Shown here in pieces: positions 1-25,744 of a stretch of DNA of 41,347 nt (positions within the stretch are counted from its first letter, which is position 1; each line of letters opens with the position of its first letter). A program made the position numbers and the translations under genes. The notes beneath the pieces were generated by a model that saw only the letters and a list, made by a program, of their open reading frames with translations, did no database searches and had not been told where the DNA came from. Location: contig DATIPW010000057.1 of NCBI GenBank assembly GCA_035471605.1, forward strand, positions 1-41,347. The letters run 5' to 3'. Origin of the DNA: Anaerolineales bacterium (lineage in GTDB: Bacteria; Chloroflexota; Anaerolineae; Anaerolineales; Villigracilaceae).

Positions 1-947
1 GCGCCCCGCAGCACCGTTTTCAGATACGGATTGACGCCCAGCTGGTTGAAGACGGTGTCCAGAACCCCAAAGATCAGCACCCCGGCGAGCGTGCCCCAGA
101 CGCCACCCTTGCCGCCGGAGAGAGCCGTTCCTCCGACGACAGTGGTGGCGATCGATTCAAGATCGTAGATGCCGTCGGGGCCCACCCAGGGTGCTCCAGA
201 CTGCAGGCGGCTTACCAGGAAGACGCCCGTCAACACGGCGGACATGCTGCACAGAACGTGAGCCAGGATCACGATGCGGTCTGTCCGCAGCCCGGAGAGC
301 CGCGCGACCTCCGCGCTCCCGCCCACCCCATACAGGTGAGCTCCGAACTTGGTGCGGGTGAGCAACAGCCAGCCAGCGATCACGATGATGAGCAGCACAA
401 AGATCGAGACCGGAATCAAGTTGAAGAGTTTTGCATAGCCAAAGAATTGAAAGCTCTTTGGCACGCTGCCGGTGTAGTTGGAGAAAGAGGCGTTAATCCC
501 ACCTGCGAGAAACAGGCTCATTCCGAGAGTGGCTATGAAGGCATTGACGTTCAGCTTGGTGATCACGAGACCATTGATCAGTCCAACGAGAGCGCCGATC
601 GCAAAGACGATCACGATCGCCAGGGGCACCCTGGCCGGATCACCCTGCATGATGTAGGAAGACAGGACGGCCGTGACGCTGATCAGATACGCCACCGAGA
701 GGTCGATCGAGGCGCCGACGATTACCAGGGTCTGGCCCACGGCCACAATGCCCAAGGCCACGGAACGGACGATGATGTTGAGGACGATATTCGGATTGGT
801 AAAGATCTGGCCGTCCGAAAAGATCTGATCCAGTACGCCGCCGATCAGGAAAATGACGATCAGGAAGATGTAGACCGGCGGGATCCGGACGGCCCGCAGT
901 GCCCGAGAGAAACTGCTGCTGGGGGCGGTGGTTGCAGTGGTGGCCAT
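1..947 (-). CDS. Sugar ABC transporter permease (RbsC/XylH type); C-terminus runs off the window edge
   Basis: Absent from the ORF track because it is open at the edge. Manual minus-strand translation from ATG 947..945 gives MATTATTAPSSSFSRALRAVRIPPVYIFLIVIF...GQTLVIVGASIDLSVAYL...ITKLNVNAFIATLGM...GGTALSGGKGGVWGTLAGVLIFG. It is multi-TM and ribose/xylose-permease-like. The ATG lies 1 nt after the ATPase stop (951..949). Plus ORF 258..1007 is its antisense shadow. Confidence 0.85.
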   Translation of the reverse strand, partial: MATTATTAPSSSFSRALRAVRIPPVYIFLIVIFLIGGVLDQIFSDGQIFTNPNIVLNIIVRSVALGIVAVGQTLVIVGASIDLSVAYLISVTAVLSSYIMQGDPARVPLAIVIVFAIGALVGLINGLVITKLNVNAFIATLGMSLFLAGGINASFSNYTGSVPKSFQFFGYAKLFNLIPVSIFVLLIIVIAGWLLLTRTKFGAHLYGVGGSAEVARLSGLRTDRIVILAHVLCSMSAVLTGVFLVSRLQSGAPWVGPDGIYDLESIATTVVGGTALSGGKGGVWGTLAGVLIFGVLDTVFNQLGVNPYLKTVLRG

Positions 948-948
948 A

Positions 949-2553
949 CTATTCCTTTCCCTGCGCCGATTTATCGTTGCCGCCGTGACCGGTGGCCATC
1001 AACATGATGTCCTGCTCGCTCGACCTGGCAGGCAGCTGGCCGGCTACGCGGCCATCCCACATCACCAGGATGCGGTCGCTCATTCCCACGACCTCGGGCA
1101 GCTCTGACGAGATCATCATTACCGCGATGCCCTTGCGGGTGAGGTCGCGGATCATGTCGTGGATGCTGGCCTTGGATTCGACGTCGATGCCTCGGGTGGG
1201 CTCATCGAAGACGAAGACATCTGCCTCTGAAGCCAGCCACTTGGCCAGCACGACCTTCTGCTGGTTTCCACCACTGAGGAACTGGGCCTCGCGATCAAAC
1301 GAGTCTGTACGGATATCCACCTGCGTGCCCAGCATGGGGACCAGCTTTCGCGATCTGCGAACACCATCCCGCTGGATGGCGCCGAAGATCGACTCGATGG
1401 CGCGCACCGTGAGAAGCATATTGTCGCGGATCGACTGCCTGGGAGCAATACCCTCGCTCTTGCGGTCCTCAGTGACAAATCCCATCTTGTTCTTGATGGC
1501 CTTGGTGGGATTGCCGACCGCGATCGCCTTGCCGTGGAGTTCCATGGTACCGGTCCGGAAGGGCGCAACTCCAAACAGGGCTTGGGCAAGCTCGGTGCGG
1601 CCTGAACCCTGCAGGCCTGCGACGCCCAATACCTCTCCCCTGCGAAGCTCAAAAGTAATGCCTTTCAGGAAGTGATTCCCGGCATCCTTGACCCTCAGGA
1701 CCACCTCCCCAAGCTCTTCGGGGGTCCCCAGTGGAGGGAAGTAGTGATCCAGAGTGCGACCGACCATGAGAAAGACCACGTCCGCAGGTTGAACCTCTTC
1801 TGTGTTGACGGTCTTGACCAGTTGGCCATCTTTCAGTACCGAAATCCTCTCGGCGATGTCGAAGACTTCAGGCAGCCGGTGGGAGATGAAGACGATCGCC
1901 ATACCGCGAGCCTTGAGTCGTCTTATCAGGTCATAGAGCAGCTGCACTTCCGTATAGGTTAGCGCCGCCGTGGGCTCGTCCATGATGAGAACTCTGGCAT
2001 TCAGTGAGATGGCCTTGGCAATCTCCACTAGCTGCTGCTCTGCCACTGAGAGGCCGCTGACAACGGCAGTGGGCGAAATCATCTTGTTCACGCCGAGTTC
2101 TTGCAGCACGGCCGTAGCCTGCGCATTCATGCGTCGGACGTCGATCACGCCTAGTCGGGATGGCTCGCGTCCGATGAAGATGTTATGGGCCACAGTCCGG
2201 TCGGGGAGCAGATTGAATTCCTGGTACATGATGCTGATGCCCTTGCGCTGCGCCTCGACAGGGTGGGAAAACGCAACCCGTTTCCCTTCCAGGAGGATCT
2301 GTCCCGCATCGGGGACATAGGCGCCCGACATGATCTTCATCAGTGTCGACTTGCCGGCGCCGTTCTCTCCGACCACGGCGTGGATCTCACCTGCCATGAA
2401 TTGGAGACTCACATCATGCAAAGCCTCCACGCCGGGGAAGCGCTTGGTGATGTGCTGCACCTCCAGCAATGGCTGCACTTGGCTCTTCTGGACCTTGGAG
2501 TTATCCGTTTTGCCTTTTGCCATTTGGACCTCGTCTTCTGCAGGCAATGTCAT
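949..2553 (-). CDS. Sugar ABC transporter ATP-binding protein, duplicated NBD (RbsA/MglA/XylG type)
   Basis: First NBD has Walker A GENGAGKST, an LSVAEQQ signature and LIMDEPTAAL. The second NBD has LSGGNQQK and FVFDEPTRGID. Start chosen at ATG 2553..2551, which overlaps the upstream stop in an ATGA. ATG 2523..2521 (MAKGKTDN..) is an equally plausible alternative. Confidence 0.9.
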   Translation of the reverse strand: MTLPAEDEVQMAKGKTDNSKVQKSQVQPLLEVQHITKRFPGVEALHDVSLQFMAGEIHAVVGENGAGKSTLMKIMSGAYVPDAGQILLEGKRVAFSHPVEAQRKGISIMYQEFNLLPDRTVAHNIFIGREPSRLGVIDVRRMNAQATAVLQELGVNKMISPTAVVSGLSVAEQQLVEIAKAISLNARVLIMDEPTAALTYTEVQLLYDLIRRLKARGMAIVFISHRLPEVFDIAERISVLKDGQLVKTVNTEEVQPADVVFLMVGRTLDHYFPPLGTPEELGEVVLRVKDAGNHFLKGITFELRRGEVLGVAGLQGSGRTELAQALFGVAPFRTGTMELHGKAIAVGNPTKAIKNKMGFVTEDRKSEGIAPRQSIRDNMLLTVRAIESIFGAIQRDGVRRSRKLVPMLGTQVDIRTDSFDREAQFLSGGNQQKVVLAKWLASEADVFVFDEPTRGIDVESKASIHDMIRDLTRKGIAVMMISSELPEVVGMSDRILVMWDGRVAGQLPARSSEQDIMLMATGHGGNDKSAQGKE

Positions 2554-3398
2554 GCGAGGATCGACTTCAGGAACTGCAGTCCCTGGGATGCAATCGCGTC
2601 TTGGCTGGGGGCAATCTTGCGCCAAATGCATACTGCTCGGGCGATCTCGCTAACCTCGGACGTGAACGACTCAATCACCACGGGACCTGAATACTTGATC
2701 TCTTTGAGTGCGGACGCCACCTCCTGCCAGCGCACCTGCCCTGTCCCAGGGATGCCGCGATCATTCTCGCACGCGTGGAAGTGGAAGATCCGATCTGAAG
2801 CCTTGCGAATCGCAGCACTGCTGCTCCGTTCTTCCAGATGCATGTGGAAGGTATCCAGGTGCAGCCCAACGTTGGGCTTGCCAACCTGATCAATGAAGTC
2901 TAAGGCCTGATCCACGATGTTGATCATGTCCGTTTCGAACCGGTTCAGAGGCTCCAGCGCAAGGCGCACACCCATTTCACCGGCGATCTTCGCCATTTCG
3001 CGGACTCCGCTCACGGCGCGCTCCCACTCGGCCCGGCGCGCGGACTCGTCATCCAGGTGTGCCTTGCCCACGCCAGAATACATCGGCCCGCAGACGGTCG
3101 ATGAACCCAGCGCAGCCGCGGCATCGATCAGCCAGCGGATGTAGGTCTTGGAGGCGTTCGAGATCGCGGGGTCCTCATTTGCCAGGTCGCGGTCCGGTCC
3201 CCATGCACCGCAGACCACAGCTTCCAACCCGTGCTCTGCCAGGCTCCGCTTGATCTCTGGCAGATCGATCGATTGAGGTGACTCAAAGGCAAGCTCAAGA
3301 ATGTCAAAGCCCATGGTCTTCACCTTGGGCGCCAACTTCAGGGCTGCCGCGGTATCTAATGGAGAAACCCACACAAACGTGTTGACGCCAAACCTCAC
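2550..3398 (-). CDS. Ketose 3-epimerase-like enzyme (D-tagatose/D-psicose 3-epimerase family, xylose-isomerase-like TIM barrel)
   Basis: LALEPLNRFETDMIN, GLHLDTFHMHLEE, HFHACENDRGIPGTG and VVIESF match the four metal-ligand blocks I recall for DTE/DPE-family epimerases. The GTG start overlaps the ROK stop (GTGA). Confidence 0.75.
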   Translation of the reverse strand: MRFGVNTFVWVSPLDTAAALKLAPKVKTMGFDILELAFESPQSIDLPEIKRSLAEHGLEAVVCGAWGPDRDLANEDPAISNASKTYIRWLIDAAAALGSSTVCGPMYSGVGKAHLDDESARRAEWERAVSGVREMAKIAGEMGVRLALEPLNRFETDMINIVDQALDFIDQVGKPNVGLHLDTFHMHLEERSSSAAIRKASDRIFHFHACENDRGIPGTGQVRWQEVASALKEIKYSGPVVIESFTSEVSEIARAVCIWRKIAPSQDAIASQGLQFLKSILA

Positions 3399-4726
3399 GG
3401 CCGCCCACCTTCCTCGTCTCGGGTCTCGCCGGGACCCTCCGGAACAATGGCAAGGACGTAGTCCAGGCCGAGGCCTATGGCACCAAGCATTCCTGCATCC
3501 GGGCCGATACCCGAAAAGACAATCTGGAGATTGCGGGTCGCCAGTGGCAGGGATCTCTTGAACACCGCCTGCCGGATGGACGACAGCAGCAAGTCTCCCA
3601 GGTTGCTCACCCCTCCGCCGATGACGATCATGTCTGGGTTGTAAAAGTTCACCAGGGCTGCCAGAACTTCCCCTACCAGCCGCCCGCTTTCGCGCACGAC
3701 CTCGATCGCAAACGCATCACCTTGCTGGGCGGCGACGCCAACATCCTGGGCTCCCAGCACATTCCCATTGCTCTCATACCGTTGCATCAGGGCCGGGCTA
3801 CGGCCGGCGCGGGCGCCCGCCAAGGCCCGCTCAGCAATACCTGCCCCGCCCGCGATTTTCTCCAAGCAGCCCTTGTTGCCGCACGGACACATCGGGCCGT
3901 TCTTGTCCACGCAAATGTGGCCGATATCGCCGGCGCACCCGCTGGAGCCTCGATAGATGCGCCCTTCACAGACTATGCCGGCACCGATTCCTGTGCCCAT
4001 CTTCACCGAGATCACGTGGTCAGCCCCGCGAGCCGCTCCCTGCCTCATCTCACCCAAGGCCATCACATTCACATCATTGTCCACAACGACATTGGCGAAG
4101 GGGAACCACTGCTGCACAGTATCTGCAATCGGATAGCGATCCCAGCCCGGCATGATCGGCGGCGAGACCACTGTTCCGGCAGAGAAATCCACCGGCCCTG
4201 GTACGCCAATGCCGATGCCCATCACGTTTTCGGCCGCCAAACCATTCTTGGCGAGCCAGCCCTCGAGGAGCGCGCAGGCGCGGCCCAGCGTGCAGATGGG
4301 CCCGTCTTGGACAACTGCGGGCTCGGAGTGCTTGACCAGCAGTTTCCCGGAAAAATCAGCAATCCCGAGGTCGAAGTCGATCGCGCCGATCTGAATGCCG
4401 GCCACCACACCAAGCTTCTCATTCAGCCGGAATGACTTCGAGCGTCGGCCCCCTGAGTACTCCGTGGATGTATTGGCGACCAGGATGGATTTGCTGAGCA
4501 GGGAGTCGATGCAACCTGTGATCTTCGTACGCGAGAAGTCGGTAAACGCGACAAGGCTTGACTTGGTGAGCTCACCCTCTCGGCGAAGCAGCTCGACCAG
4601 CGCATTCTCGGCGGTCGATATCGATTTCCGCCGCGGCAGTTTTGCAGCCCGATCCAACCACCCCGGCATGGAGCTTGATGCAACTTCCCGGGGTCCCTTG
4701 TGAGTCACGCCTCGAGCAATGCCCAT
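3395..4726 (-). CDS. ROK-family transcriptional regulator (N-terminal winged HTH plus sugar-kinase-like domain)
   Basis: HTH-like ALVELLRREGELTKSSLVAFTDFSRTKITGCIDSLL. ROK blocks are GIGVPGPVD, DNDVNVMALGE and the Zn motif CPCGNKGCLE. The maximal ORF reaches 4759 (GTG). ATG 4726..4724 is preferred because it is preceded by AAGAGGA. Confidence 0.85.
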   Translation of the reverse strand: MGIARGVTHKGPREVASSSMPGWLDRAAKLPRRKSISTAENALVELLRREGELTKSSLVAFTDFSRTKITGCIDSLLSKSILVANTSTEYSGGRRSKSFRLNEKLGVVAGIQIGAIDFDLGIADFSGKLLVKHSEPAVVQDGPICTLGRACALLEGWLAKNGLAAENVMGIGIGVPGPVDFSAGTVVSPPIMPGWDRYPIADTVQQWFPFANVVVDNDVNVMALGEMRQGAARGADHVISVKMGTGIGAGIVCEGRIYRGSSGCAGDIGHICVDKNGPMCPCGNKGCLEKIAGGAGIAERALAGARAGRSPALMQRYESNGNVLGAQDVGVAAQQGDAFAIEVVRESGRLVGEVLAALVNFYNPDMIVIGGGVSNLGDLLLSSIRQAVFKRSLPLATRNLQIVFSGIGPDAGMLGAIGLGLDYVLAIVPEGPGETRDEEGGRP

Positions 4727-4884
4727 TGCTGGCTTCGGTCCTCTTCTTTTCCGAGGCACAAGATGCGCCTCGGTACTCGTGGGCAGGGCTACAGACCACT
4801 AAGGCTTGGCTGAGACTTTGCAGTGGTTCTTCGCGGGGAACTATCTTGGACCGGTAAGCCGTGAGAACGTGTGCGCCAGGGAAA

Positions 4885-4949
4885 GTAATTACATCATCAC
4901 ATGATTCTTAGGGAAAAGGCTCTCTATGTCAATATGTTATGTGTCACAT
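4885..4949 (-). promoter_or_regulatory. Candidate internal promoter for the ROK/epimerase/ABC sub-operon, with flanking small palindromes
   Basis: The minus strand reads TTGACA (4932..4927), 17 nt, AAGAAT (4909..4904). Palindrome ATGTG-T-CACAT (4939..4949) lies just upstream. Palindrome GTAATTAC (4885..4892) lies about 12 nt downstream of the -10. Confidence 0.3.
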
Positions 4950-5042: not shown

Positions 5043-6371
5043 CTAGTTGCTGACGCACTCAAGGTCAAAAACCTTCGAAATCGTTCTCAAGTCCTCCAAG
5101 TTGTGGCCTCTCGTCAAAATATAGTGGTGGGAAACCAAGTCCGCCACCAAGCGTTTGCCATTGGGCACTCTGATCACAGCGCCGTTGAGACAATGCGAGT
5201 TCTTGAAACCAGCATACTTGGGAAGCGCTCCCTCGACGACGGACCAACGATCAAAGGGCGGCATGAGCTTAACAAGGGTAATCTCGCCCTCGGCCAAGCG
5301 GGCGTCAATGGCAGTGGCGTTGTCATCCACGATTGCCAGAACCTTCGGCTTCAGCCTCCACTCAGTAGAAAACGATTGGGGCACCACGCCAAGGTAACCG
5401 CAGTGTGCCGCCAAGATGTGGTCTTCCGTACGACCGTCGACTGCGGGGAAGTGAGGAATGTGCTCATGCTTCAGGGCCGCGTCCCCCATTTCGAAGGGGT
5501 ACAGGTTGGTCATCATGAAAGGCACACCCAGCGTCTTGCCGATCAGGATCTTGGTGAGCATGGATATCAGGTCCGCCTCGCAACCCCAGACCATGCGCTG
5601 ATCCTCGAACAGGAAGTTCCAGGCCAAGCAGGGGGTGGTATCCGAGTACATGGACTCATTGAGGCAGTTGATGCCGACCGCGATGACGCTGGGATCACGA
5701 TCCAGCTCGGCCTTGACGGCCAGGTACATCTTCACCGCGCTTAGGACCGCGCTGTCCTTGAGGCGAGAGATGGGAGTCCTACCCTTGCGCCTCGCCCACT
5801 CAGCACGTGCCGCCTCCTCCGGGATGGCACGCGCAGCGGCTGCCAGCTTCTTGAAGCTCCTCTTCACCACCTTCACGCCGTAGCGCGTCTCGATCTCCTG
5901 GACGCATTGCGGCTCCCACCAGTAGAAGCGTTTGAAAATGGGATCTTGCTGACCCTGGCTGGCGGGGTGGTCCTGGAAGACGAGCAGCTTGGAACGCTTG
6001 AGCTGCCGCTTCAGGGCGAAGGCACGGCATGCCTGGCGGGTCTTCTCCAGACTAGTCGGTCCTATGACCCGCACGCCCCGGGCCGTGAGAAAACTATTGA
6101 TTTCCCAATCCCACATCGACACGGTTCCGAATTCGGAGGTCACCACCAGGAGCGGCTGGGGGAGTCTCTTGAACTTCTCCAGGAGCCCGTAGGCCTCGCC
6201 CAGCATCTGCGGAAAGATCACTGCATCGGCGGGTGGAACCCTGGCCCCGAGCTTGACGGGTGGCAGCAGATCGGCCTCATTGATCAGGAGTTGCTTCAGC
6301 TTGCCAAGCTGAGCCTCGAACTCGGAGTCGTTTGCGGACTTGAGGTAGAGGGGGACGATCCTGGCCTTCAT
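5043..6371 (-). CDS. L-fucose/L-arabinose isomerase-like sugar isomerase (divergent)
   Basis: 442 aa. WGCEADLISMLTKIL and AAHCGYLG resemble the acidic and His metal blocks of the FucI/AraA fold. The gene sits in a sugar operon. The family call rests on remembered motif similarity only. Confidence 0.5.
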   Translation of the reverse strand: MKARIVPLYLKSANDSEFEAQLGKLKQLLINEADLLPPVKLGARVPPADAVIFPQMLGEAYGLLEKFKRLPQPLLVVTSEFGTVSMWDWEINSFLTARGVRVIGPTSLEKTRQACRAFALKRQLKRSKLLVFQDHPASQGQQDPIFKRFYWWEPQCVQEIETRYGVKVVKRSFKKLAAAARAIPEEAARAEWARRKGRTPISRLKDSAVLSAVKMYLAVKAELDRDPSVIAVGINCLNESMYSDTTPCLAWNFLFEDQRMVWGCEADLISMLTKILIGKTLGVPFMMTNLYPFEMGDAALKHEHIPHFPAVDGRTEDHILAAHCGYLGVVPQSFSTEWRLKPKVLAIVDDNATAIDARLAEGEITLVKLMPPFDRWSVVEGALPKYAGFKNSHCLNGAVIRVPNGKRLVADLVSHHYILTRGHNLEDLRTISKVFDLECVSN

Positions 6372-6494: not shown

Positions 6495-7658
6495 TCACCT
6501 AATATCTGAGACGTTCACCTTTTGCCCAGTCCTGGCCGAGATGATGGCGGCCTCCAGTACCTGCATGTCCTTCATGCCATCGAGCAGGTTGGGGGTAAGT
6601 TTGGCGCCCTTCTCCATGGCTTTCAGGAAGTCGGCCACCGCGTGCGTGAACTCGTGCTCGTAGCCGATGATGTGCCCCGGCGGCCACCACGCGGCGATGT
6701 AGGGATGGGTGGCGTTGGTAACCAAGATCGTGCGGAAACCCTGCTCATCGGCCGGATCTGCTAAGCTCAGGTATTGAAGCTCGTTCATGCGCTCGAGGTC
6801 GAAGGCCAGGCTGCCCTTGCTCCCGTAGATCTCGAAGTAGTTGTAGTTCTTTCGGCCGCTGGCGAACCGGCTCGCCTCGAATGCCCCCAGGGCGCCGTTC
6901 TCGAACTCGGCGACCATGAAGGCGGCGTCGTCGACCGTGACCTTGCCCTTCTCCGCGGCCGCCGTACCAGACTTGAACGTGCCAGCATCCTTTCCAGGCA
7001 GCGGACGCTCGGTAACGAAGGTCTTCGTCATCGCTGAGACGGCCTTGACCTCGCCTACCAGGTAGCGGGCCAGGTCCACGCTGTGCGAGTTCAGATCGTA
7101 GTGGGGCCCTGCGCCAGCGAACTTGCTCTGCAGGTGCCAAGTGAGAGGGAAGTCCGGATCAGTGATCCAGTCCTGCAGGTAGGTACCGCGCCAGTGGAAG
7201 ATCTGGCCGATCTTGCCCTCCTCGACAAGTTGGCGGGCAAATGCGATGGCAGGCGTGCGGCGGTAGTTGTGATTCAGATAGTGCAGAACGCCAGCCTTCT
7301 CCGCCGCCTCGTACATCTCCTTGGCCTCGGCGAAGTTCAGGGCGATCGGCTTCTCGCAGAAGATGTGCTTGCCATTGCGCGCGGCGGCGACCACGATGTC
7401 CTTGTGCAGGTACGTGGGTGTGCAGACGTCGATGATGTCGACGTCCTTGCGGTTAACAACACTCTGCCAGTCGCCCGCCGATTCTTCCCAGCCCCAGCGG
7501 CCCGCAAAATCGCTGGTGCCCTTTTCGTCCTGTCCGCAGGCCACCTTGAGCACCGGCGTGATGCCGACATCAAAGAACTTGGTGACGGAGGTCCACGCGT
7601 TGCTGTGGGCCTTGCCCATGAACTTGGTGCCGATTATGGCGACGTTGGCTTTCTTCAT
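6495..7658 (-). CDS. Gfo/Idh/MocA family NAD(P)-dependent oxidoreductase
   Basis: N-terminal Rossmann VAIIGTKFMGKAHSNAW and the family EKP motif (HIFCEKPIA). SD GAGGA lies upstream of ATG 7658. Confidence 0.9.
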   Translation of the reverse strand: MKKANVAIIGTKFMGKAHSNAWTSVTKFFDVGITPVLKVACGQDEKGTSDFAGRWGWEESAGDWQSVVNRKDVDIIDVCTPTYLHKDIVVAAARNGKHIFCEKPIALNFAEAKEMYEAAEKAGVLHYLNHNYRRTPAIAFARQLVEEGKIGQIFHWRGTYLQDWITDPDFPLTWHLQSKFAGAGPHYDLNSHSVDLARYLVGEVKAVSAMTKTFVTERPLPGKDAGTFKSGTAAAEKGKVTVDDAAFMVAEFENGALGAFEASRFASGRKNYNYFEIYGSKGSLAFDLERMNELQYLSLADPADEQGFRTILVTNATHPYIAAWWPPGHIIGYEHEFTHAVADFLKAMEKGAKLTPNLLDGMKDMQVLEAAIISARTGQKVNVSDIR

Positions 7659-7713
7659 GGGATCCTCGCTTTCCAGGCGTATCCGCGCTTGGGCTGCTCT
7701 GCCCAGGCATTTT

Positions 7714-8577
7714 CTAGTGGAGGGAGGCGGCGATCTTCTTCAGGGCTTTGATGCTGAGCTCGACCATGTCGTCTTCCTTACCCTCCCAGTCGGAGTGCGG
7801 GTGGTCGATCTCCACGGCCAAGAAGCCCTTGAAGTTGGCCTTGTGCAGCAGCTCCGCCAGGCGCTGGTTGTCAATCAGTCCGTCGCCGACCGGAACGCCC
7901 CCAAAGAAATACCAGTCCGTCGGGCTCGCCTTCTTGTCTGGCATAAGGTCTTTGACATGAGTGGCCATGACATGCGGCGCAAGTTTCTCCATCGCCGCGA
8001 TCGGGTCGTCCAGCAGGCGTAGGAAATTGCCGGTGTCGAAATTCAGGCCGAAGCTCGTCGAATTGACTTCGTTGATGAGCTGCAGCACTTCGTCGCCCGT
8101 GAAGTCGATGTGATTCTCTACCGCCATCTTGACGCCGTGGTCCTCGGCAACCTTGATGGCCTTCCTGAACATCTCGACAAGGGCCTTGATCTGCGGCCCG
8201 TGGGGCTCGTGGCGGAATGCCAGGCTGCTACCCACGACGCGCATCACATCCGCGCCAATGGCCTTGGCCTTCGGAATGCCCGCGACCATCTCCTCGTATG
8301 CAGTCCAGTTCTGCCCGCGCTCGAGTCCGTCGGGATGACCCCAGGCATAGACGCGGTCCAGTTTGTAATCGTCCAGTTGGGCCTTCAGATCCCTGAACCA
8401 CCCATCATCTGCCTTCACGGGGAAGAAGCAGGACTCCAACGATACGCCGTCGACTTTCAACTCCCGGGCTCGCTTGAGGAAATCCTGCATGCTCCATTCT
8501 TTTTCCGGTTTCTTCTGATCCGGATAGACCTCCCCAAAGAAACGGTGATAGCAATAGCTGTCGATTCCGACCTTCAT
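7714..8577 (-). CDS. Sugar phosphate isomerase/epimerase family protein (xylose-isomerase-like TIM barrel)
   Basis: AVENH, FDTGNF, THVKD and AVEIDH blocks are typical of the AP_endonuc_2/XI-like barrel. A strong SD AGGAGG precedes ATG 8577. It is the first gene of the minus-strand unit. Confidence 0.85.
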   Translation of the reverse strand: MKVGIDSYCYHRFFGEVYPDQKKPEKEWSMQDFLKRARELKVDGVSLESCFFPVKADDGWFRDLKAQLDDYKLDRVYAWGHPDGLERGQNWTAYEEMVAGIPKAKAIGADVMRVVGSSLAFRHEPHGPQIKALVEMFRKAIKVAEDHGVKMAVENHIDFTGDEVLQLINEVNSTSFGLNFDTGNFLRLLDDPIAAMEKLAPHVMATHVKDLMPDKKASPTDWYFFGGVPVGDGLIDNQRLAELLHKANFKGFLAVEIDHPHSDWEGKEDDMVELSIKALKKIAASLH

Positions 8578-8699: not shown

Positions 8700-8748
8700 C
8701 TGTCATTACAGGATGACATTATTATACAGCCATCCGCCCGAAAAGCAA
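8700..8748 (-). promoter_or_regulatory. Promoter plus palindromic operator (op3) for the minus-strand sugar unit
   Basis: The minus strand reads TTGCTT (8748..8743), 16 nt, TATAAT (8726..8721), aa, TGTCAT-CCTGTA-ATGACA (8718..8701). The inverted repeat is related to the two operators at 8984 and 20508. Confidence 0.5.
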
Positions 8749-8951: not shown

Positions 8952-9003
8952 TTGACATCGCCTGTCACCGCAGGTATAATTGCTTGTAATAACAGGATTA
9001 CAA
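8952..9003 (+). promoter_or_regulatory. Consensus sigma70-type promoter plus palindromic operator (op1) for the gntR-led operon
   Basis: TTGACA (8952..8957), exactly 17 nt, TATAAT (8975..8980), tgc, then TTGTAAT-AACAGG-ATTACAA (8984..9003). It lies 33 nt upstream of the GntR GTG start. Confidence 0.65.
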
Positions 9004-9835: not shown

Positions 9836-11410
9836 GTGCCGCAAAAGTATCTGATCGGTGTTGACCTTGGAACCAGCGGGACCAAGGCCGCGCTGTATCA
9901 GGTGGATGGCAGGCGCGTTTTCGCGGCCGCCATGGAAGTTCCCCTTCACCATCCGAGCCCTGGCGTCGTGGAGCAGGACAGCGAGGATTTCTACTCGTCG
10001 GCGGCGCAGACCGTTCGCGAATGCATCGGCGGCAGCGGCGTCGAGCCTGCCTCGGTCGCCGCGATCGCTTTCGATTCACAGATGGCAGGTGTTGGTCTCA
10101 TCGATGAGGATTTCCACCCGGTAGCGCGCTTCGACTCTTGGCTCGACATGCGCTGCCGGCCGTACATTGAGGCGATGGACAGGGAAGCGGGCGAGCGCAT
10201 CACCCAGCTCACTGGCTGCCCGCCGACTTGCGACCACGGCCCCAAAATGCTCTGGTGGAAGCACGAGCAGCCGGAAGTGTACAAGCGCGCCGCCAAATTC
10301 GTCATGCCGGGGACCTACGTGTCCGGCCGGCTGGCAGGTCTGCGAGCCGACCAGGCTTTCATCGACCATACCTACATACATTTCTCGGGATTCTCGGACG
10401 CTCGCAGCGGCACGTGGTCGGACGAACTGTGCGGCCGCTTTGGGCTTGACCCGCAAAAACTGCCCAGGATCGTGGCTCCGACCGAGATCATCGGTGAGGT
10501 ACTGGAGGGACCGGGCGCTGAGTTCGGGCTGGCGCCCGGCACCATCATTGCTGCAGGGGCAGGGGACACGGCCGCCAACGCGCTGGGCGCGGGAATCGTG
10601 CGCGCGGGGATGCTCTTCGACGTGGCAGGCACGGCTTCCGTCCTGGCCGGCTGCACGGACAGATTCGTAGCTGACACGCGCAACCGCGCCCTGATGACCA
10701 TGCGTTCCGTGATTCCGGGGCTGTGGAACCCGCTGGCCTACATCGGGGGCGGCGGAATCGCGCTGCGATGGTTTCGGGACAATTTCTACAATACTTCGCG
10801 GGGGAGCCCCCTGCCTCCTGATGAGGACACGTACGCGCGGATGATCGCCACGGCACAAGGCGCTCCCCCCGGAGCCGACGGGCTCCTCTTCTCGCCGCAC
10901 TTGGGCGGCCGCATCTGCCCCTCCAGTCCGGAAATGCGCGGCGCGTGGCTCGGCTTCTCGTGGTCCCACACGCAGGCGCACTTCGCCCGTTCGATCCTCG
11001 AGAGCATCGCCTACGAGTACGCGTACTATTTGAAGATCCTGCGCACCCTCATGCCTGAACTTGAGCTTGTAGAAGCGCGAGTGGTCGGCGGCGGTGCACG
11101 CAGCCCGGGGTGGAATCAGATCAAGGCCGATGTGCTGGCAGTCCCGTACCAGCGGCTGGCGGGCAGCGAGTTCGGCACATGGGGCACGGCCATGATCGCC
11201 GGGACGGCTGCAGGCCTGATTCCGGATCTCGCCGGGCACGCGCAGAGATGCGCCGTCCGCGACGGAGACCCGCTACAGCCTGGACAGGACGCCCACGCGG
11301 CCTACGAGCCGATCGTCAGTCGATATATACGGCTGCAACACACACTTAATGCCTACTTCACCAGCTCCGAGATTGAACCCGCCCGAGAGTGGGAGGATCG
11401 ATCTAGATGA
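9836..11410 (+). CDS. FGGY-family carbohydrate kinase (xylulokinase-like), copy 1
   Basis: YLIGVDLGTSGTKAALY N-terminal ATPase motif and GAGDTAANALGAG, about 520 aa. SD AGGAGAG. The stop overlaps the next start (ATGA at 11407). Confidence 0.9.
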   Translation: MPQKYLIGVDLGTSGTKAALYQVDGRRVFAAAMEVPLHHPSPGVVEQDSEDFYSSAAQTVRECIGGSGVEPASVAAIAFDSQMAGVGLIDEDFHPVARFDSWLDMRCRPYIEAMDREAGERITQLTGCPPTCDHGPKMLWWKHEQPEVYKRAAKFVMPGTYVSGRLAGLRADQAFIDHTYIHFSGFSDARSGTWSDELCGRFGLDPQKLPRIVAPTEIIGEVLEGPGAEFGLAPGTIIAAGAGDTAANALGAGIVRAGMLFDVAGTASVLAGCTDRFVADTRNRALMTMRSVIPGLWNPLAYIGGGGIALRWFRDNFYNTSRGSPLPPDEDTYARMIATAQGAPPGADGLLFSPHLGGRICPSSPEMRGAWLGFSWSHTQAHFARSILESIAYEYAYYLKILRTLMPELELVEARVVGGGARSPGWNQIKADVLAVPYQRLAGSEFGTWGTAMIAGTAAGLIPDLAGHAQRCAVRDGDPLQPGQDAHAAYEPIVSRYIRLQHTLNAYFTSSEIEPAREWEDRSR

Positions 11411-12459
11411 GGCAACCCGTTCGCTTGTGCATGATCGGCGCAGGCCGCGTCGGGAAGAATCATTCCCGGGCAATCGTGCGCGGCATTGCCGGCGCGCGCA
11501 TCGTCGCCCTGGTGGACCCTGTAGAGCAGATCCGGCAGCAGACGGCCACGGAGTTCGGCATCCAGCAGCAGTTCGCTTCGTTGGAAGAGGCGCTGGATCA
11601 GGCCGACTTCGACGCCGTGGTGATCACCACGCCCACTCCCACGCACATGCCTCTTGCGGCCACAGCCGCCGGGCACAAGAAGCACGTGTTTCTTGAGAAA
11701 CCGATGGCGTTGAACCTGCAGGAATGCGATGAGATCCTGGCGGCGGTTGAGAGGGAGAGCGTTCTGCTGCAGCTTGGGTTCATGCGCCGGTTTGATCCCG
11801 AGTTCGTCGCGGCCGCCCGGCGCATCGAGGCGGGTGAGATTGGTCAGCCCATGATGATCAAGTCCAATACCCATGGCCCCGGCCTGCCGCCCGCCTGGGC
11901 ACGCGACCTGCGCACCTCCAACGGGATGCTGGCCGAGGTCAACAGTCATGACTGGGATACGACGCGCTGGCTGATGGGCTCTGACTACGAGCGCGTCTAC
12001 ACTGAAGTGGCCAACTTCAAGGGCACGGCCCACGGCGTGGAAGCCGAGCATTTCTACGACAACGCCCTCGTCAATCTGAAATTCGAAAGCGGCGGCCTGG
12101 GATTGATCTCCGGAGTCTGCCCCTGCGGCTATGGGTATGATGCCAGGGTGGAGGTCATCGGTGAGAGGGGCATCATGCTGATTGGATCCCTGCAGGGCCA
12201 GGATGTGGTCGTGTGCACCGATCGCGACCACGGCCTGATCACGCCGATCTACCGGACGTGGCCGGAGCGCTTCGAATGGGGCTACATAAACGAGTTGCAG
12301 CATTTCGTCACCTGCATCCAAGATGGCGAGCGACCCCGTGTGGGCGGCGTGGACGGTCGATGGGCGGTTGCGGGTGTGCTAGCAGGGACGAAATCTTTTC
12401 TTGAGGAACGCCCCGTATATCTCAAGGAAATCCTTGGGAACGGCACGCGGAAAAGCTGA
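11407..12459 (+). CDS. Gfo/Idh/MocA family oxidoreductase (inositol-2-dehydrogenase-like)
   Basis: CMIGAGRVGKNHSRA Rossmann fold, HVFLEKPMA motif, 350 aa. Confidence 0.9.
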   Translation: MRQPVRLCMIGAGRVGKNHSRAIVRGIAGARIVALVDPVEQIRQQTATEFGIQQQFASLEEALDQADFDAVVITTPTPTHMPLAATAAGHKKHVFLEKPMALNLQECDEILAAVERESVLLQLGFMRRFDPEFVAAARRIEAGEIGQPMMIKSNTHGPGLPPAWARDLRTSNGMLAEVNSHDWDTTRWLMGSDYERVYTEVANFKGTAHGVEAEHFYDNALVNLKFESGGLGLISGVCPCGYGYDARVEVIGERGIMLIGSLQGQDVVVCTDRDHGLITPIYRTWPERFEWGYINELQHFVTCIQDGERPRVGGVDGRWAVAGVLAGTKSFLEERPVYLKEILGNGTRKS

Positions 12460-12465
12460 GGGTTG

Positions 12466-17734: not shown

Positions 17735-18202
17735 ATGCCAATGAGCAGCAAGACGAACATCGCCACGCTCCACCATGAGCAAGGCTACGGCTGCGCTCAG
17801 CCCGTGCTGGCGGCGTTCGCGGGGGATTATGTCTCGAGTGAAGAGCAAGCCCTCAAACCTGCCACGGGATTCGGATCAGGCATGGGGGGGCTGTGCGAGG
17901 TGTGGGGAGCTCTGACGAGCGCCTTCCGGGTGCCCAGGTCGAAATACGGCCGTGCAGAATGCGATGGCACGAACTACCGTACAAAGACCGAAACCCCGTA
18001 TACCCCCATCCATGCCTTTGCAAGCCGCTTCAAGGAGCGCAACTTCGGCATCTACTGCGGGGTACTGGCCGGACCCGACCTCAACAACCCCGAGCAACGC
18101 GAGAGGGCGAAGCGGGAGGGCGTCCTTGCCACAACCTGCAGCCAGTGCGTTCAGGATGTCACCGAGTTGGTTGCGGAACTGCTCGAGGTAGAGACGCCAT
18201 GA
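17735..18202 (+). CDS. C_GCAxxG_C_C family protein (putative redox-active small protein)
   Basis: HHEQGYGCAQPVLAAFAG....GFGSGMGGLCEVWGALTSA....FGIYCGVL....TTCSQCVQDV matches the family order of conserved Cys blocks. The central CGA block is altered to CEVWGA. Confidence 0.55.
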   Translation: MPMSSKTNIATLHHEQGYGCAQPVLAAFAGDYVSSEEQALKPATGFGSGMGGLCEVWGALTSAFRVPRSKYGRAECDGTNYRTKTETPYTPIHAFASRFKERNFGIYCGVLAGPDLNNPEQRERAKREGVLATTCSQCVQDVTELVAELLEVETP

Positions 18203-18885
18203 GCTTGGACCCCGAGGACATTGCGGCCATGATCGACCTGTCCTGCGTGCGGACAACCTCGAGCCGCGAGGACATCGACCGGATGGTTGAGGCGGCGGCA
18301 CGCTACCACTTTGGACACGTTTCCGTCCTGCAGTGCTTCATCCCCTACACGCGGGATTTGTTGAAGGACGCGCCCGGCGTGGAACTGGTCGGGAATGTCA
18401 GCTTCCCCTCGGGCTCTGACTCCACATCGATCAAGGTTGCACAGGCCAGGGAGATGCTCGCGTCCGGTTGTCACGAGATCGACATGGTGATGAACATAGC
18501 CAGACTGCGCTCCGGCGAAGTCGCCGAGGCGGAATCCGATGTTTGCCAAGTGATCGAGGCCGTGCGTCCAACGCCTGTAAAGGTAATCATCGAAATGATG
18601 GTCCTGACGCCGGAAGAGGTCGCGACGGCATGCAACATCTCCGTTCGCGCCGGGGCTTCATTCGTCAAGACGGGCACAGGTTGGGCTGAGCGCGGCACGA
18701 CGCTCGAGGACGTGCGGCTCGTCAAGTCGATCGTGGGCGACAGCATCAAGATCAAGGCCTCAGGCGGCATACGACGGCTCGACACCCTGATCGCGATGTA
18801 CCAAGCCGGCGCGCGCCGCTTTGGCGTCAACCTTGGGAGCGGAATCCAGATTGTTGAGGAAGCCCGTGCGCTGCAGGCAGGCTGA
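18199..18885 (+). CDS. deoC: Deoxyribose-phosphate aldolase family (DeoC-like class I aldolase)
   Basis: HEIDMVMN, VKVIIE, ASFVKTGTGW (Schiff-base Lys block) and IKASGGIR. ATGA overlap with the preceding gene at 18199..18202. The upstream part of track ORF 17893.. is discarded. Confidence 0.85.
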   Translation: MSLDPEDIAAMIDLSCVRTTSSREDIDRMVEAAARYHFGHVSVLQCFIPYTRDLLKDAPGVELVGNVSFPSGSDSTSIKVAQAREMLASGCHEIDMVMNIARLRSGEVAEAESDVCQVIEAVRPTPVKVIIEMMVLTPEEVATACNISVRAGASFVKTGTGWAERGTTLEDVRLVKSIVGDSIKIKASGGIRRLDTLIAMYQAGARRFGVNLGSGIQIVEEARALQAG

Positions 18886-20475: not shown

Positions 20476-20527
20476 TTGACACAACTGCAGAAGATGAGTA
20501 CAATCACTTGTAATTACAGGATTACAG
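20476..20527 (+). promoter_or_regulatory. Consensus sigma70-type promoter plus palindromic operator (op2) for the 20744..26659 operon
   Basis: TTGACA (20476..20481), exactly 17 nt, TACAAT (20499..20504), cac, then TTGTAAT-TACAGG-ATTACAG (20508..20527). The architecture matches 8952..9003. Confidence 0.65.
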
Positions 20528-20743
20528 CCGGCGACGCCAACGCCATAGCGGTCGAAACCTGCTCCATCATCTTCCAGCAATCCCCTTTAGCGGTTCGCTT
20601 CTCCCACAATTCGTCCTCTGTGCCTGATGCACCGCCACGCACCCGGGCGCGCATCGCGGCCCCGCCTACATGTGGAAGGAGTCCTATCGATTGGGACCAG
20701 TGACCCGCGCAGCCAGGACAGCAATAGCCGAAAGGATTGCACA

Positions 20744-21715
20744 ATGAAGATAGGTCTGTTCACAGCCACTTTTCTTGATATGAAGATCGACGAGGTGTTC
20801 AGACTGGCCGCCGGCTTGGGGTACGAGGCCGTCGAAATGCCTGCATTTGCCAACAACGGGCAGCTCGACATTGAAGCGATCGTCAAGGGCAACGCCGCGG
20901 CTGATCTGAAGAACCAGGTCAAGTCGCACGGCCTTATTATCTCCGCCTTGGCCAATCACCCGGAGGGACAGATCGTACTGGGCCCGTATGGCAAGGACAC
21001 CGACGCCATTTGCCAGGGCACCAAGGAGGAGAAGATCAAGTTCGGCACGGAACGCATGATCAAGACGGCGGCGGCCGCCAATGCGCTTGAAGTACCCGTG
21101 GTTACCGGCTTTATCGGTTGCGAGAATTTTGGCCGCTTCTTTCCCTGGCCCTATTCCCAGGGCTGGTCTGACATGGAACAGGAGTTTGTCGAGCGCTGGG
21201 GAAAGATCCTCGACAAATTTGCCGAGTACGGCGTGAAGTTCGCCCACGAGCCGCATCCGAGTGAACTGGCGTACAACGTCGAGACGGCACAGCGAGCGGT
21301 GGAGCTGATGGGTGGTCGCAAGGAGTTCGGCTTCAATTTCGATCCCGCCAACCTGATCTACATGGGCATCGACGTGGAGAACTTCATCGACGCGCTGGCG
21401 CCACATATCTATCACGTGCATGCCAAGGACGGCGAGATCGTGGCCCACAACGTTCGACGTTCGGGCCTCATTCCGCAGGGCGACTGGCAGCGCCTGGGTC
21501 GCGGCTTCCGCTTCCGCATCCCTGGTTGGGGATCCGTGCCGTGGAAGAAGGTCATCACCGAACTCTCTCTGATCGGGTACGACTACGTCATGTCTTATGA
21601 GCATGAGGATGTCACCATGAGCCGGCATGACGGCATCACCAAGACGATTGCCTACCTCAAGCCGCTGCTCATCGAGAAGCCGTACGAAGGCCGCCACGAC
21701 GTGCTGTTCAACTGA
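20744..21715 (+). CDS. Sugar phosphate isomerase/epimerase family protein (xylose-isomerase-like TIM barrel)
   Basis: MKIGLFTATF..., FAHEPHP, FNFDPANL, YHVHAKDGE and MSYEHED blocks. It is a paralog of 25745..26659. Start at ATG 20744. The upstream part of the track ORF lies in the leader. Confidence 0.85.
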   Translation: MKIGLFTATFLDMKIDEVFRLAAGLGYEAVEMPAFANNGQLDIEAIVKGNAAADLKNQVKSHGLIISALANHPEGQIVLGPYGKDTDAICQGTKEEKIKFGTERMIKTAAAANALEVPVVTGFIGCENFGRFFPWPYSQGWSDMEQEFVERWGKILDKFAEYGVKFAHEPHPSELAYNVETAQRAVELMGGRKEFGFNFDPANLIYMGIDVENFIDALAPHIYHVHAKDGEIVAHNVRRSGLIPQGDWQRLGRGFRFRIPGWGSVPWKKVITELSLIGYDYVMSYEHEDVTMSRHDGITKTIAYLKPLLIEKPYEGRHDVLFN

Positions 21716-21739: not shown

Positions 21740-22798
21740 ATGACACAAACCATGAAAGCAGCGGTGTTCGAAGCGCCCAAGAAGGTCGTGATCAAGCAGG
21801 TGCCGGTACCCGAGATTGGTCCGGCCGACGTGCTGATCAAGGTCAAATACACGGGCATTTGCGGCACGGACTGGAGCATTTACAACGGCTGGTACGCTGC
21901 CGAAAAGCTGCCGATGATCCCGGGTCACGAGTTCTCAGGTGTAATTGCCAAGATCGACAGGAACACACGCGGCTTGAAAGAGGGCGACCGCGTCACGGCA
22001 GACATCAACATGAGTTGCGGCACGTGCTTCTACTGCATGCACGGGCAGCAGCTCCTGTGCGACCAGTTCACACAGCTCGGCATTCACACGGACGGCACCT
22101 TCGCCGAGTTTGTCAGGGCGCCGATCGCCAACGTTCACAAGCTGCCGGATAACCTGAGCTTCGAGGAAGGAGCCTTCATCGAGCCCGTATCCTGCGTGAT
22201 CCACGCTGCCAAGGCCATGGACCCGGCACTCGGCAGCAGCGTAGCCATCATTGGCTGCGGCCTCGGGGTGCTGCACGGCGCCCTCGCCAAGCTCAAGGCC
22301 TGCGCCCCGGTGATCGTCATCGGCGACAATCGAAAGCGGCTTCAGCTGGCGAAGGACATGGGCGCCGATCACATCATCCACATCGACGACGTGAAGGACG
22401 TCGTCGCAGAGGTTCGCAAGCTAACCGAAGGTCGCGGCGCGGACTACGTGCTCGAGGCGGTCGGCAGCATCAAGACCTACGAGCAGGCGTTTGCCATGAT
22501 GCGCAAAGGCGGCGTGCTCTCCTCCTTCGGCATCGTCGGCGACCAGGATGTGATGCAAATCCGGCCTTTCGAGTTCGTCCTGGGCGAAAAGAAGATCACG
22601 GGATCGTGCGCGGGCATCGGCAGCGACTGGCCGGATGCTATCACGCTCATCGCCAACGGCCGCATTGATCCCAAGCCGCTGTTCTCAATGCGCGTACCCC
22701 TCGAAGACCTTGAATGGGCGCTGCATGAGCTACGCAAGGATCCCAGTCTGTTCAAGGTGTTCGTCTCGCCGGAGATCAGCAAGCGCGAGGTCATCTAG
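21740..22798 (+). CDS. Zn-dependent medium-chain alcohol/polyol dehydrogenase, copy 2
   Basis: CGTDWSIYNG...GHEFSG, CGTCFYCMHGQQLLC and IIGCGLGV. Confidence 0.9.
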   Translation: MTQTMKAAVFEAPKKVVIKQVPVPEIGPADVLIKVKYTGICGTDWSIYNGWYAAEKLPMIPGHEFSGVIAKIDRNTRGLKEGDRVTADINMSCGTCFYCMHGQQLLCDQFTQLGIHTDGTFAEFVRAPIANVHKLPDNLSFEEGAFIEPVSCVIHAAKAMDPALGSSVAIIGCGLGVLHGALAKLKACAPVIVIGDNRKRLQLAKDMGADHIIHIDDVKDVVAEVRKLTEGRGADYVLEAVGSIKTYEQAFAMMRKGGVLSSFGIVGDQDVMQIRPFEFVLGEKKITGSCAGIGSDWPDAITLIANGRIDPKPLFSMRVPLEDLEWALHELRKDPSLFKVFVSPEISKREVI

Positions 22799-22831: not shown

Positions 22832-23245
22832 GTGTCCTGCTGGCGGAGCAACGCACTGAAGATCAACGGCATCGACCACGTATCCATCAACTTGACCGAC
22901 GCGGCCCGGTCCTTTCACTTCTACGCAGCCGTGCTTGGGCTGGAACGCCTCGAGACAGTGGACTGCGGCGATTTCGAGATCACGTACTTCGGCCTACCGA
23001 GCGGGGGCCGGCTCGAGCTCTTCGACTATCGCGGCCGCAACGCCGTTCGGCGGCGCCAGGAAAGCGATGTTGGGCTGCGCCACATCGCGTTCGAGGTGGA
23101 AGATGTCGCGGCGCACGAGGCGCGGCTCCGACAGGCCGGCGTCAAGATCACCCTGCCCACGACCGAATTCCCGAACCTGGGCGTGAGGGTGCTGCTCTTC
23201 GAGGACCCCAACGGCGTGACACTCGAGTTTTGTGAACGGCTGTAG
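22832..23245 (+). CDS. VOC (glyoxalase/bleomycin-resistance/dioxygenase) family protein
   Basis: IDHVSINLTDAARSFHFYAAVLGLE....LRHIAFEVEDV....FEDPNGVTLEF is the typical paired beta-alpha-beta-beta-beta VOC signature. The start (GTG 22832) is uncertain. Confidence 0.75.
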   Translation: MSCWRSNALKINGIDHVSINLTDAARSFHFYAAVLGLERLETVDCGDFEITYFGLPSGGRLELFDYRGRNAVRRRQESDVGLRHIAFEVEDVAAHEARLRQAGVKITLPTTEFPNLGVRVLLFEDPNGVTLEFCERL

Positions 23246-23311
23246 CGAGCTCACGCAGGAGCAAGGCCGAACGTACCGAACAGCATGACCCATTCCAGGA
23301 GGAAGCACAAG

Positions 23312-25734: not shown

Positions 25735-25744
25735 GGAGGATCAA

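Follow-up and report, generated by a model that had tools for sequence, protein, structure and literature searches.

We analyzed a 41,347-nucleotide stretch of DNA (the window: contig DATIPW010000057.1 of assembly GCA_035471605.1, positions 1 to 41,347) from a 2.68-Mb metagenome-assembled Chloroflexota genome, 93% complete, of an Anaerolineales bacterium. Its left part contains an adjacent gene pair that encodes a TIM barrel of Pfam family PF01261 (B1) and a Gfo/Idh/MocA dehydrogenase (G1). The pair belongs to a regulon that may hold two distinct cytoplasmic modules, each composed of a dehydrogenase and a barrel and acting on keto-sugar intermediates, a view to which we give slightly less than an even chance. 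With the same tentative confidence we propose that the regulon carries out an oxidation, a step catalyzed by B1, a hydration, a reduction and an isomerization, resembling the levoglucosan (Lgd) pathway, on a small compound other than levoglucosan. Under one putative operator there are homologs for three of the four Lgd roles: the dehydrogenase that oxidizes, the barrel of hydratase type and the reductase at the end. The fourth, that of the eliminase LgdB1, has no recognizable homolog, and B1 stands in its place beside the dehydrogenase.

Genes were called from a listing of open reading frames (ORFs) and from Pfam and NCBIfam scans of the window proteins. The two operons that carry most of the argument, and the putative operators, are as follows.

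7714-8577, minus strand: B1, metal-dependent PF01261 TIM barrel, first gene of its operon (Pfam AP_endonuc_2/xylose-isomerase-like, E 3e-30)
6495-7658, minus strand: G1, Gfo/Idh/MocA dehydrogenase, predicted to be NAD-dependent (Pfam GFO_IDH_MocA, E 8e-26 for the N-terminal and 5e-31 for the C-terminal domain)
5043-6371, minus strand: AraA/FucI-fold isomerase-like protein of 442 amino acids (aa) (AlphaFold2 model and Foldseek)
20627-21715, start possibly 20744, plus strand: B3, TIM barrel of the SCO6571/AtHYD/long-LgdB type (Pfam and PDB matches)
21740-22798, plus strand: zinc-dependent alcohol dehydrogenase (Zn-ADH) between B3 and G3
22832-23245, plus strand: VOC/glyoxalase-fold protein between B3 and G3 (Pfam Glyoxalase, 71 bits)
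23285-24553, plus strand: Old Yellow Enzyme (OYE) between B3 and G3
24568-25734, plus strand: G3, Gfo/Idh/MocA oxidoreductase, homolog of the gene in the LgdC position (Pfam)
25745-26659, plus strand: B4, TIM barrel, divergent B3 paralog (Pfam, E 4e-36)
8701-8718, plus strand: putative HutC/GntR-type operator, preceding the B1-G1-isomerase operon
8985-9002, plus strand: putative operator, preceding the cassette led by a GntR-type gene
20509-20526, plus strand: putative operator, preceding the operon from B3 to B4
4884-4901, plus strand: putative operator, a degenerate copy with one mismatch to the relaxed pattern, preceding the ROK-B0-transporter operon

The left 27 kb of the window is occupied by four apparently co-regulated operons. 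On the minus strand, one operon comprises B1, G1 and the 442-aa gene, and another comprises a ROK gene, the barrel B0, and the ATPase and permease of a CUT2-type ATP-binding cassette (ABC) transporter, reaching the contig end. On the plus strand, one operon begins with a GntR/HutC repressor and includes a third Gfo/Idh/MocA gene, G2, and the other runs through B3, Zn-ADH, VOC protein, OYE, G3 and B4. An 18-bp site, TGTAATnACAnnATnACA, lies upstream of all four operons (at 4884, 8701, 8985 and 20509), where chance would provide none. This supports the assignment of the four operons to one regulon, which an earlier note, made by reading this DNA alone, had proposed. Pfam also confirmed the genes on which that note was built, namely an adjacent Gfo/Idh/MocA gene and barrel at 6495-8577 and again at 24568-26659, with further members at 11407 (G2) and 20744 (B3, in an ORF from 20627). 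Its count of four barrels (B0, B1, B3 and B4) and three oxidoreductases (G1, G2 and G3) is correct. The three oxidoreductases all exceed the Pfam cut-offs of the Gfo/Idh/MocA families (PF01408, PF22725 and PF02894), and the four barrels score 106-159 bits on PF01261, for which the cut-off is 31. Four of the seven PF01261 genes of the genome are located on this contig, as are three of its five matches that are LGDH-like (levoglucosan dehydrogenase-like) or Gfo.

Reference Lgd loci were obtained with NF052479, the NCBIfam equivalog model for LGDH, which has a curated cut-off of 650 bits. A search of 401 genomes of another phylum gave two loci above the cut-off, L083 and L084, at 713-714 bits. 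In both, a PF01261 barrel of 270-272 aa lies beside LGDH, accompanied by a Peripla_BP_4 substrate-binding protein (SBP), a CUT2-type ABC transporter, a barrel of 324-333 aa and a second Gfo gene. The true Lgd order is ROK, LgdB1, LgdA, SBP, ABC, permease, long barrel and Gfo, with the upstream ROK gene seen in L084. The layout of the two loci matches the published Lgd layout (PMC7676230, PMC10066097), and in Bacillus smithii LgdA, LgdB1, LgdB2 and LgdC turn levoglucosan into glucose via a 3-keto route (PMC7676230).

Like the Lgd pathway of Bacillus smithii and Paenarthrobacter (LgdA-LgdB1-LgdB2/B3-LgdC), the window combines a CUT2 ABC transporter and a ROK regulator with a dehydrogenase of the LGDH family beside a PF01261 barrel of ~280 aa, a barrel of ~330 aa and a second Gfo gene. 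Its counterparts of the genes in the Lgd loci show 46% (ROK), 36-41% (CUT2 ABC), 42-44% (G1), 33-35% (B3) and 55% (G3) identity. It differs from the Lgd pathway in adding the AraA-fold isomerase and in having its homologs split over three operons together with OYE, VOC, Zn-ADH, kinase and aldolase genes. The B1-G1 pair, moreover, is spread through anaerobic phyla, G1 falls below the LGDH cut-off, and B1 shares only the fold with LgdB1.

On NF052479, G1 scored 394 bits over its whole length and thus did not reach the cut-off, and seven G1 orthologs from other phyla scored 353-430 bits, compared with 714 bits for the true LGDH in L083. Since the family as a whole scores 353-430 bits against a cut-off of 650 and G1 is only 42-44% identical to the true LGDHs of L083 and L084, the G1 family is, as judged from these comparisons, a coherent sister subfamily of LGDH and not LGDH itself. 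The best solved relatives of G1 were 4h3v, an unassigned protein (393 bits), and the LGDH 6a3f (338 bits), the latter being its nearest characterized relative among named proteins. Alignment showed that the blocks GxGFMGKAHS, EKP, NYRRTPA and GTYLQDW are common to G1 and LGDH; G1 keeps the cofactor region, EKP and most of the LGDH-specific blocks, and the C-terminal, substrate-side segment differs. The scyllo-inositol/L-glucose dehydrogenase 5ya8, which oxidizes C1, scored 214 bits with G1, and DgpA scored 71-75 bits.

The Glu-Asp-His-Glu metal site, which was checked for B1 only, is intact in the alignment, with E154, D181, H207 and E256 conserved. As references for LgdB1 we used the ~270-aa barrels assigned by position beside true LGDH in L083 and L084, which share 52% identity. 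Against the LgdB1-position barrel, BLASTP gave 23% identity (E 1e-4) for B1, and hhalign gave a probability of 96.7 and a score of 71, with only 202 columns aligned at 18% identity. The LgdB1-position barrels also lack the invariant N-terminal G-x-D-x-Y-x-Y-H-R block of B1. An assignment of B1 as an LgdB1-type eliminase is not supported, given the 18-23% identity and the weak hhalign match over 202 columns.

A B1 profile built from 38 diverse relatives was scored against solved structures. The highest scores were obtained for Art22 (8z1i/9koj, deposited as 'isomerase'; 90 bits) and 3tva (88 bits), followed by UlaE (68 bits), IolI (54 bits) and the IolE structure (47 bits). DgpC scored 35-38 bits over the N-terminal half only, AtOGE (8bvk) 32 bits in a partial match, AtHYD 24 bits and YcjR (6wn6) 18.7 bits. 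The nearest structure to B1 is therefore the 'isomerase' Art22, on which a literature search found nothing relevant. Art22 and the Planctomyces limnophilus barrels 4ovx and 3tva, which are structural-genomics entries with no assigned function, are only 19-21% identical to B1. Foldseek searches with the B1 model did not discriminate among PF01261 structures, all matches having E values of ~1e-13, and a VIA re-alignment of the model gave a modest lead for Art22 and 4ovx. From its metal site and profile scores, B1 is predicted to be a metal-dependent enzyme of enolate chemistry that forms a family of its own.

LgdC was assigned by position in the loci with true LGDH. Over 384 aa, G3 shares 55% identity with the Gfo gene at the end of the L083 Lgd operon, the gene in the LgdC position. 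Its identity to the terminal Gfo of L084 is only 33%, and the Gfo genes of L083 and L084 are 30% identical to each other. B3 scored 145 bits with SCO6571 (2zds) and 80 bits with AtHYD (8ro4; E 2e-21), the latter match being full length (residues 54-339), and shares 33-35% identity with the long barrels of L083 and L084. The L084 long barrel in turn scored 482 bits with 2zds and 160 bits with AtHYD, and these shared matches place the long Lgd barrels, AtHYD and B3 in one family. Sequence comparison thus supports membership of B3 in the 2-hydroxy-3-keto-glucal hydratase family, at the family level only. Alignments of B3 to its solved relatives begin near residue 40, which makes the start at 20744 plausible. 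B4 is 28% identical to B3 (E 7e-27), and its matches to 2zds (51 bits) and 8ro4 (23 bits) are partial and faint.

In Agrobacterium tumefaciens, glucose is formed from a 3-keto-glucoside by the joint action of an eliminase barrel, the AtHYD barrel and a Gfo reductase (PMC10628242). The window shares with this route the combination of barrels and a Gfo reductase as well as the full-length match of B3 to AtHYD. It differs in that the first oxidation in A. tumefaciens is performed by a periplasmic flavoenzyme acting on glycosides, AtOGE barely matches the B1 profile, and B4 barely matches AtHYD.

Orthologs of G3 were found in 31 of the 151 genomes of the class, and in 12 of 24 class-level loci G3 was directly followed by a B4 ortholog (47-66% identity). 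In other Anaerolineae, G3-B4 is often preceded by a ROK gene and a DeoC-like gene, and in other phyla G3-B4 was not found beside B1-G1 among 80 B1 loci. G3-B4 is a unit separate from B1-G1. The OYE, an ene-reductase, and the VOC protein encoded between B3 and G3 fit enone intermediates. In several loci of Bacillota and Spirochaetota, orthologs of B3, the Zn-ADH and OYE are found together.

The third gene of the B1-G1 operon, which had no place in the account of the earlier note, encodes a 442-aa protein with no sequence match in Pfam, NCBIfam or PDB. The protein is strongly conserved, with a mean column identity of 62% and ~90 invariant residues across phyla. Its AlphaFold2 model has a pLDDT of 88.7, and Foldseek matched the model to E. 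coli L-arabinose isomerase 2ajt (E 4.6e-22, TM 0.72 as TMq), with ranks 1-41 all occupied by AraA, FucI or D-arabinose-isomerase structures. As modeled, the protein has the three-domain AraA/FucI fold, and it looks like an unrecognized branch of the L-arabinose/L-fucose isomerase superfamily.

A profile scan of the genome collection yielded 80 species-representative B1 loci at 61-87% B1 identity. B1 identity across phyla is 60-87%, and the loci span at least seven phyla (Chloroflexota, Bacillota, Planctomycetota, Acidobacteriota, Spirochaetota, Desulfobacterota/Deltaproteobacteria and Actinomycetota), the Bacillota carriers including Christensenellaceae and Oscillospiraceae. A G1 ortholog, defined by at least 40% identity, was present in 69 of the 80 loci, in 67 of them on the same strand and <300 bp from B1. 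The pairing of B1 and G1 is far beyond chance. An ortholog of the AraA-fold gene was present in 62 of the 80 loci. Genes of the central cassette, the operon led by the GntR/HutC repressor, also recur, namely Zn-ADH in 50 loci, FGGY kinase in 43, G2 in 41, cupin in 39 and PTE in 35, in varying arrangements. One locus (L063) consists of a bare operon of ABC, permeases, SBP, B1 and G1; its SBP has no close solved relative, the best being 4pe6 at 88 bits. The names of B1 cluster members and Atlas searches provided generic labels only.

Cultured carriers of the pair include Christensenella sp. Marseille-P2438 and Spirosoma oryzicola. In the latter, on plasmid NZ_CP089540.1 (219330-240128; locus L110), B1-G1 lies within a SusC/SusD polysaccharide-utilization locus in the order GH5, SusC, SusD, B1 (60% identity), G1 (56%), PhyH-family dioxygenase, barrel, GH140 and a ThuA-domain gene. 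The GH140 gene matches Pfam Apiosidase with 418 bits and is three genes from the B1-G1 pair. ThuA has been linked to 3-keto-disaccharide formation, so that its presence beside the pair would favor the 3-keto reading. In Acidobacteriota and Spirosoma loci (L079:2497-3399, L075:11565-12464 and L110:11006-11923), the AraA-fold gene is absent and a different PF01261 barrel of ~300 aa accompanies B1-G1. This replacement barrel is 54-58% identical among these loci, and no PDB entry matched its sequence. Cultured Acinetobacter ursingii and A. baylyi carry a relative of B1 with 37% identity (P0145 and members of its cluster).

The remaining features of the regulon in the window are listed below.

3395-4759, minus strand: ROK-family regulator (46% identity to its counterpart in a true Lgd locus)
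2550-3398, minus strand: B0, ketose-3-epimerase-like PF01261 barrel (NF051856, D-psicose 3-epimerase, 200 bits, cut-off 300)
3-2631, minus strand: CUT2-type sugar ABC transporter (ATPase 949-2631; permease 3-947, truncated by the contig end)
9036-9809, plus strand: GntR/HutC-family repressor with a UTRA domain (Pfam)
11407-12459, plus strand: G2, IolG-like Gfo/Idh/MocA dehydrogenase of the central cassette (TIGR04380, 272 bits, cut-off 355)
12463, plus strand: Zn-ADH of the central cassette
17893-18885, plus strand: DeoC/LacD-family gene (TIGR00126, 202 bits, cut-off 117)

The central cassette begins with the GntR/HutC repressor, an FGGY kinase, G2, Zn-ADH and a PTE-family hydrolase and continues with a cupin, a 2-hydroxyacid dehydrogenase, an Eda aldolase, an AroE-like protein, DeoC and a second FGGY kinase. 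With an Eda-type aldolase encoded in the same cassette, one would not expect DeoC to pass the TIGR00126 cut-off for deoxyribose-phosphate aldolase, as it does. The ROK-B0-ABC operon, being preceded by a copy of the putative operator, would answer to two regulators, one of HutC type and one ROK. In its longest ORF, the ABC ATPase shares 82 nt (2550-2631) with the 3' end of B0, so its true start is probably an internal codon. Among the predicted genes of the window there was no glycoside hydrolase, DgpB-like subunit or oligosaccharide-type transporter; the transporter is of the monosaccharide (CUT2) type. Together with the AraA-fold partner, this transporter type suggests that a free aldose or ketose is the substrate or the product somewhere in the route.

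In the Lgd-like pathway that we propose, a monosaccharide-sized compound would enter via the CUT2 ABC system, and the LGDH-like G1 would oxidize a ring hydroxyl, most likely the C3-OH, with NAD+. B1, in the place of LgdB1, would then act on the carbon next to the new ketone, either by elimination, with an anhydro bridge or a small aglycone as the departing substituent, or by epimerization. B3, and perhaps also B4, would hydrate the resulting 2-hydroxy-3-keto-glycal, and G3 would reduce the 3-keto sugar to a free aldose, which the AraA-fold isomerase would convert to a ketose, to be used by the FGGY kinases and the aldolases that the regulon encodes. In this scheme we infer the site at which G1 oxidizes, the chemistry of B1, the succession of steps and the compound metabolized, which is probably not levoglucosan itself.

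The presence of three of the four Lgd roles and the shared ROK/CUT2 context provide real support for the 3-keto-sugar idea. The levoglucosan-type logic put forward in the earlier note is thus partly supported, by the kinship of G1 with LGDH, by the match of G3 to the LgdC position and by the membership of B3 in the AtHYD family. The parallel with LgdA and LgdB-type barrels is not supported for the B1-G1 pair itself, since B1 is not LgdB1 and G1 lies under the LGDH cut-off. Its view that the 'isomerases' act as lyases or hydratases fits B3, which is assigned to a hydratase family from its sequence, but is not supported for B1, for which each known 3-keto-glycoside lyase or hydratase gave a lower score than isomerase and epimerase families did.

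Several observations weigh against the Lgd-like pathway. B1 is only 18-23% identical to the LgdB1-position barrels of L083 and L084 and is, by these comparisons, unrelated to LgdB1 beyond the superfamily level; its relations appear to lean slightly toward isomerases and epimerases over known lyases. Because the wider family of G1 includes the C1-oxidizing 5ya8, C3 chemistry of G1 is not guaranteed. G3-B4 and B3 are unlinked to B1-G1 in most other phyla, so that a single pathway need not comprise all four roles. Most hosts are anaerobes of soil, sediment, digesters and guts, for which anhydrosugars from pyrolysis are unlikely as major substrates. A lyase is not shown, given the relations of B1, the C1-oxidizing kin of G1, the linkage of the two modules in Anaerolineae only, and the AraA-fold partner and monosaccharide transporter.

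A reading of the trio by itself, which we consider possible although roughly twice as likely to be wrong as right, is that B1, G1 and the AraA-fold protein constitute the entry module of an undescribed, widespread pathway for a common, unrecognized small sugar substrate. Candidate substrates would be a small glycoside, an anhydro sugar or apiose. The phyla in this reading are Chloroflexota, Bacillota, Acidobacteriota, Planctomycetota, Spirochaetota, Desulfobacterota, Actinomycetota and Bacteroidota.

The Lgd-like pathway has to be weighed against schemes in which B1 and G1 do other chemistry. The foremost of these, which we regard as unlikely but to be taken seriously, is oxidation, epimerization and reduction without bond cleavage, converting a rare sugar into a common one. 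In E. coli, YcjS is a D-glucoside 3-dehydrogenase, YcjR a 3-keto-glucoside 4-epimerase and YcjQ a Zn-ADH, and the same three enzyme classes occur together in the window around a presumed 3-keto intermediate, a resemblance in logic only. By this scheme G1 would make a 3-keto sugar, B1 would invert a neighboring center or shift the carbonyl, G1, G3 or a Zn-ADH would reduce the product, and the AraA-fold isomerase and the kinases would take it further. The scheme is consistent with the Zn-ADH at 12463, the next most frequent neighbor (50 of 80 loci), with the ketose-3-epimerase-like B0, and with the AraA-fold partner and CUT2 transporter, both of which point to free monosaccharides. YcjR itself, however, scored only 18.7 bits against the B1 profile, so membership of 6wn6 in the B1 family is unsupported, and the AtHYD-type B3, the OYE and the LgdC-like G3 of the regulon would be left unexplained. 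A C-glycoside system, which the earlier note had named as kin, also combines a Gfo oxidase with a PF01261 barrel lyase (DgpA with DgpB-DgpC, or CarABC). The window differs from it in the weak scores of G1 and B1 and in that no small DgpB-like gene adjoins either pair. B1 as a DgpC, CarB or AtOGE type was rejected on the same grounds, with only 35-38 bits for DgpC and 32 bits for AtOGE.

Catabolism of D-apiose or of another branched or acid sugar appears improbable. Here G1 would oxidize an aldose or a sugar acid, and B1 would either decarboxylate a beta-keto acid in the manner of OiaC or isomerize apiose. Some B1 orthologs are labeled '3-oxoisoapionate decarboxylase' by JGI, but within a single 90% cluster some members carry the label and others do not. 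The position of B1-G1 three genes from GH140 in the SusC/SusD locus of Spirosoma oryzicola would suit an apiose substrate, but this link is one record, and GH140 was found neither in the bacterium's own genome (93% complete) nor in the 80 loci. The regulon includes FGGY kinases, the type to which the L-erythrulose kinase LerK belongs, and this too would suit an apiose route. In the route as described, LerK acts after OiaC (PMC13753588). ApnO, which makes the OiaC substrate, is KARI-like and not a Gfo/Idh/MocA protein (PMC13753588); it was therefore dropped as a model for G1, and no such gene was recognized in the window.

Least probable of all is catabolism of cyclitols (inositol type), in which G1 and G2 would be inositol dehydrogenases and the barrels inosose dehydratases or isomerases, following the IolG/IolE/IolI/IolO logic. 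G2 scored 272 bits on IolG and B0 scored 133 bits on IolO, while each of the two Zn-ADHs reached ~200 bits on IolM, and the scyllo-inositol dehydrogenase 5ya8 scored 214 bits with G1. The IolG, IolM and IolO scores are nevertheless well under the curated cut-offs of 355, 450 and 300 bits, and IolE (cut-off 290) gave 38 bits for B1, 27 for B3 and 30 for B4. B0 scored 83 bits on Hyi, for which the cut-off is 353. Hence no barrel comes near the cut-offs of IolE, IolI/IolO or Hyi, the families to which the earlier note had said the barrels should belong if its reading was wrong. No NCBIfam inositol model was near its cut-off on the scanned proteins, IolB, IolC, IolD and IolN not having been searched by name. 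An aldose-ketose isomerase, moreover, has no role on cyclitols.

Modules of a dehydrogenase and barrels that split or rearrange sugars via 3-keto intermediates have recently emerged as an alternative to hydrolases; they are known for levoglucosan, for glycosides of the C and O types, and from the 'alternative glycosidase' route of Bacteroides. The kind of system described here, a Gfo dehydrogenase with PF01261 barrels acting via keto sugars, is known, whereas no description of B1, G1 and the AraA-fold protein as a trio was found in the literature. The trio, which is widespread and very well conserved, would be a further module of this kind, and its barrel and isomerase lie outside the characterized families. 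If the trio is indeed an entry module, B1 would found a new functional PF01261 family acting on keto sugars, and the AraA-fold protein would found an isomerase family that is invisible to Pfam. With the substrate identified, thousands of genes annotated 'sugar phosphate isomerase/epimerase' or 'Gfo/Idh/MocA oxidoreductase' would gain a function, and a carbon source widely used by anaerobes of soil, sediment and gut could come to light.

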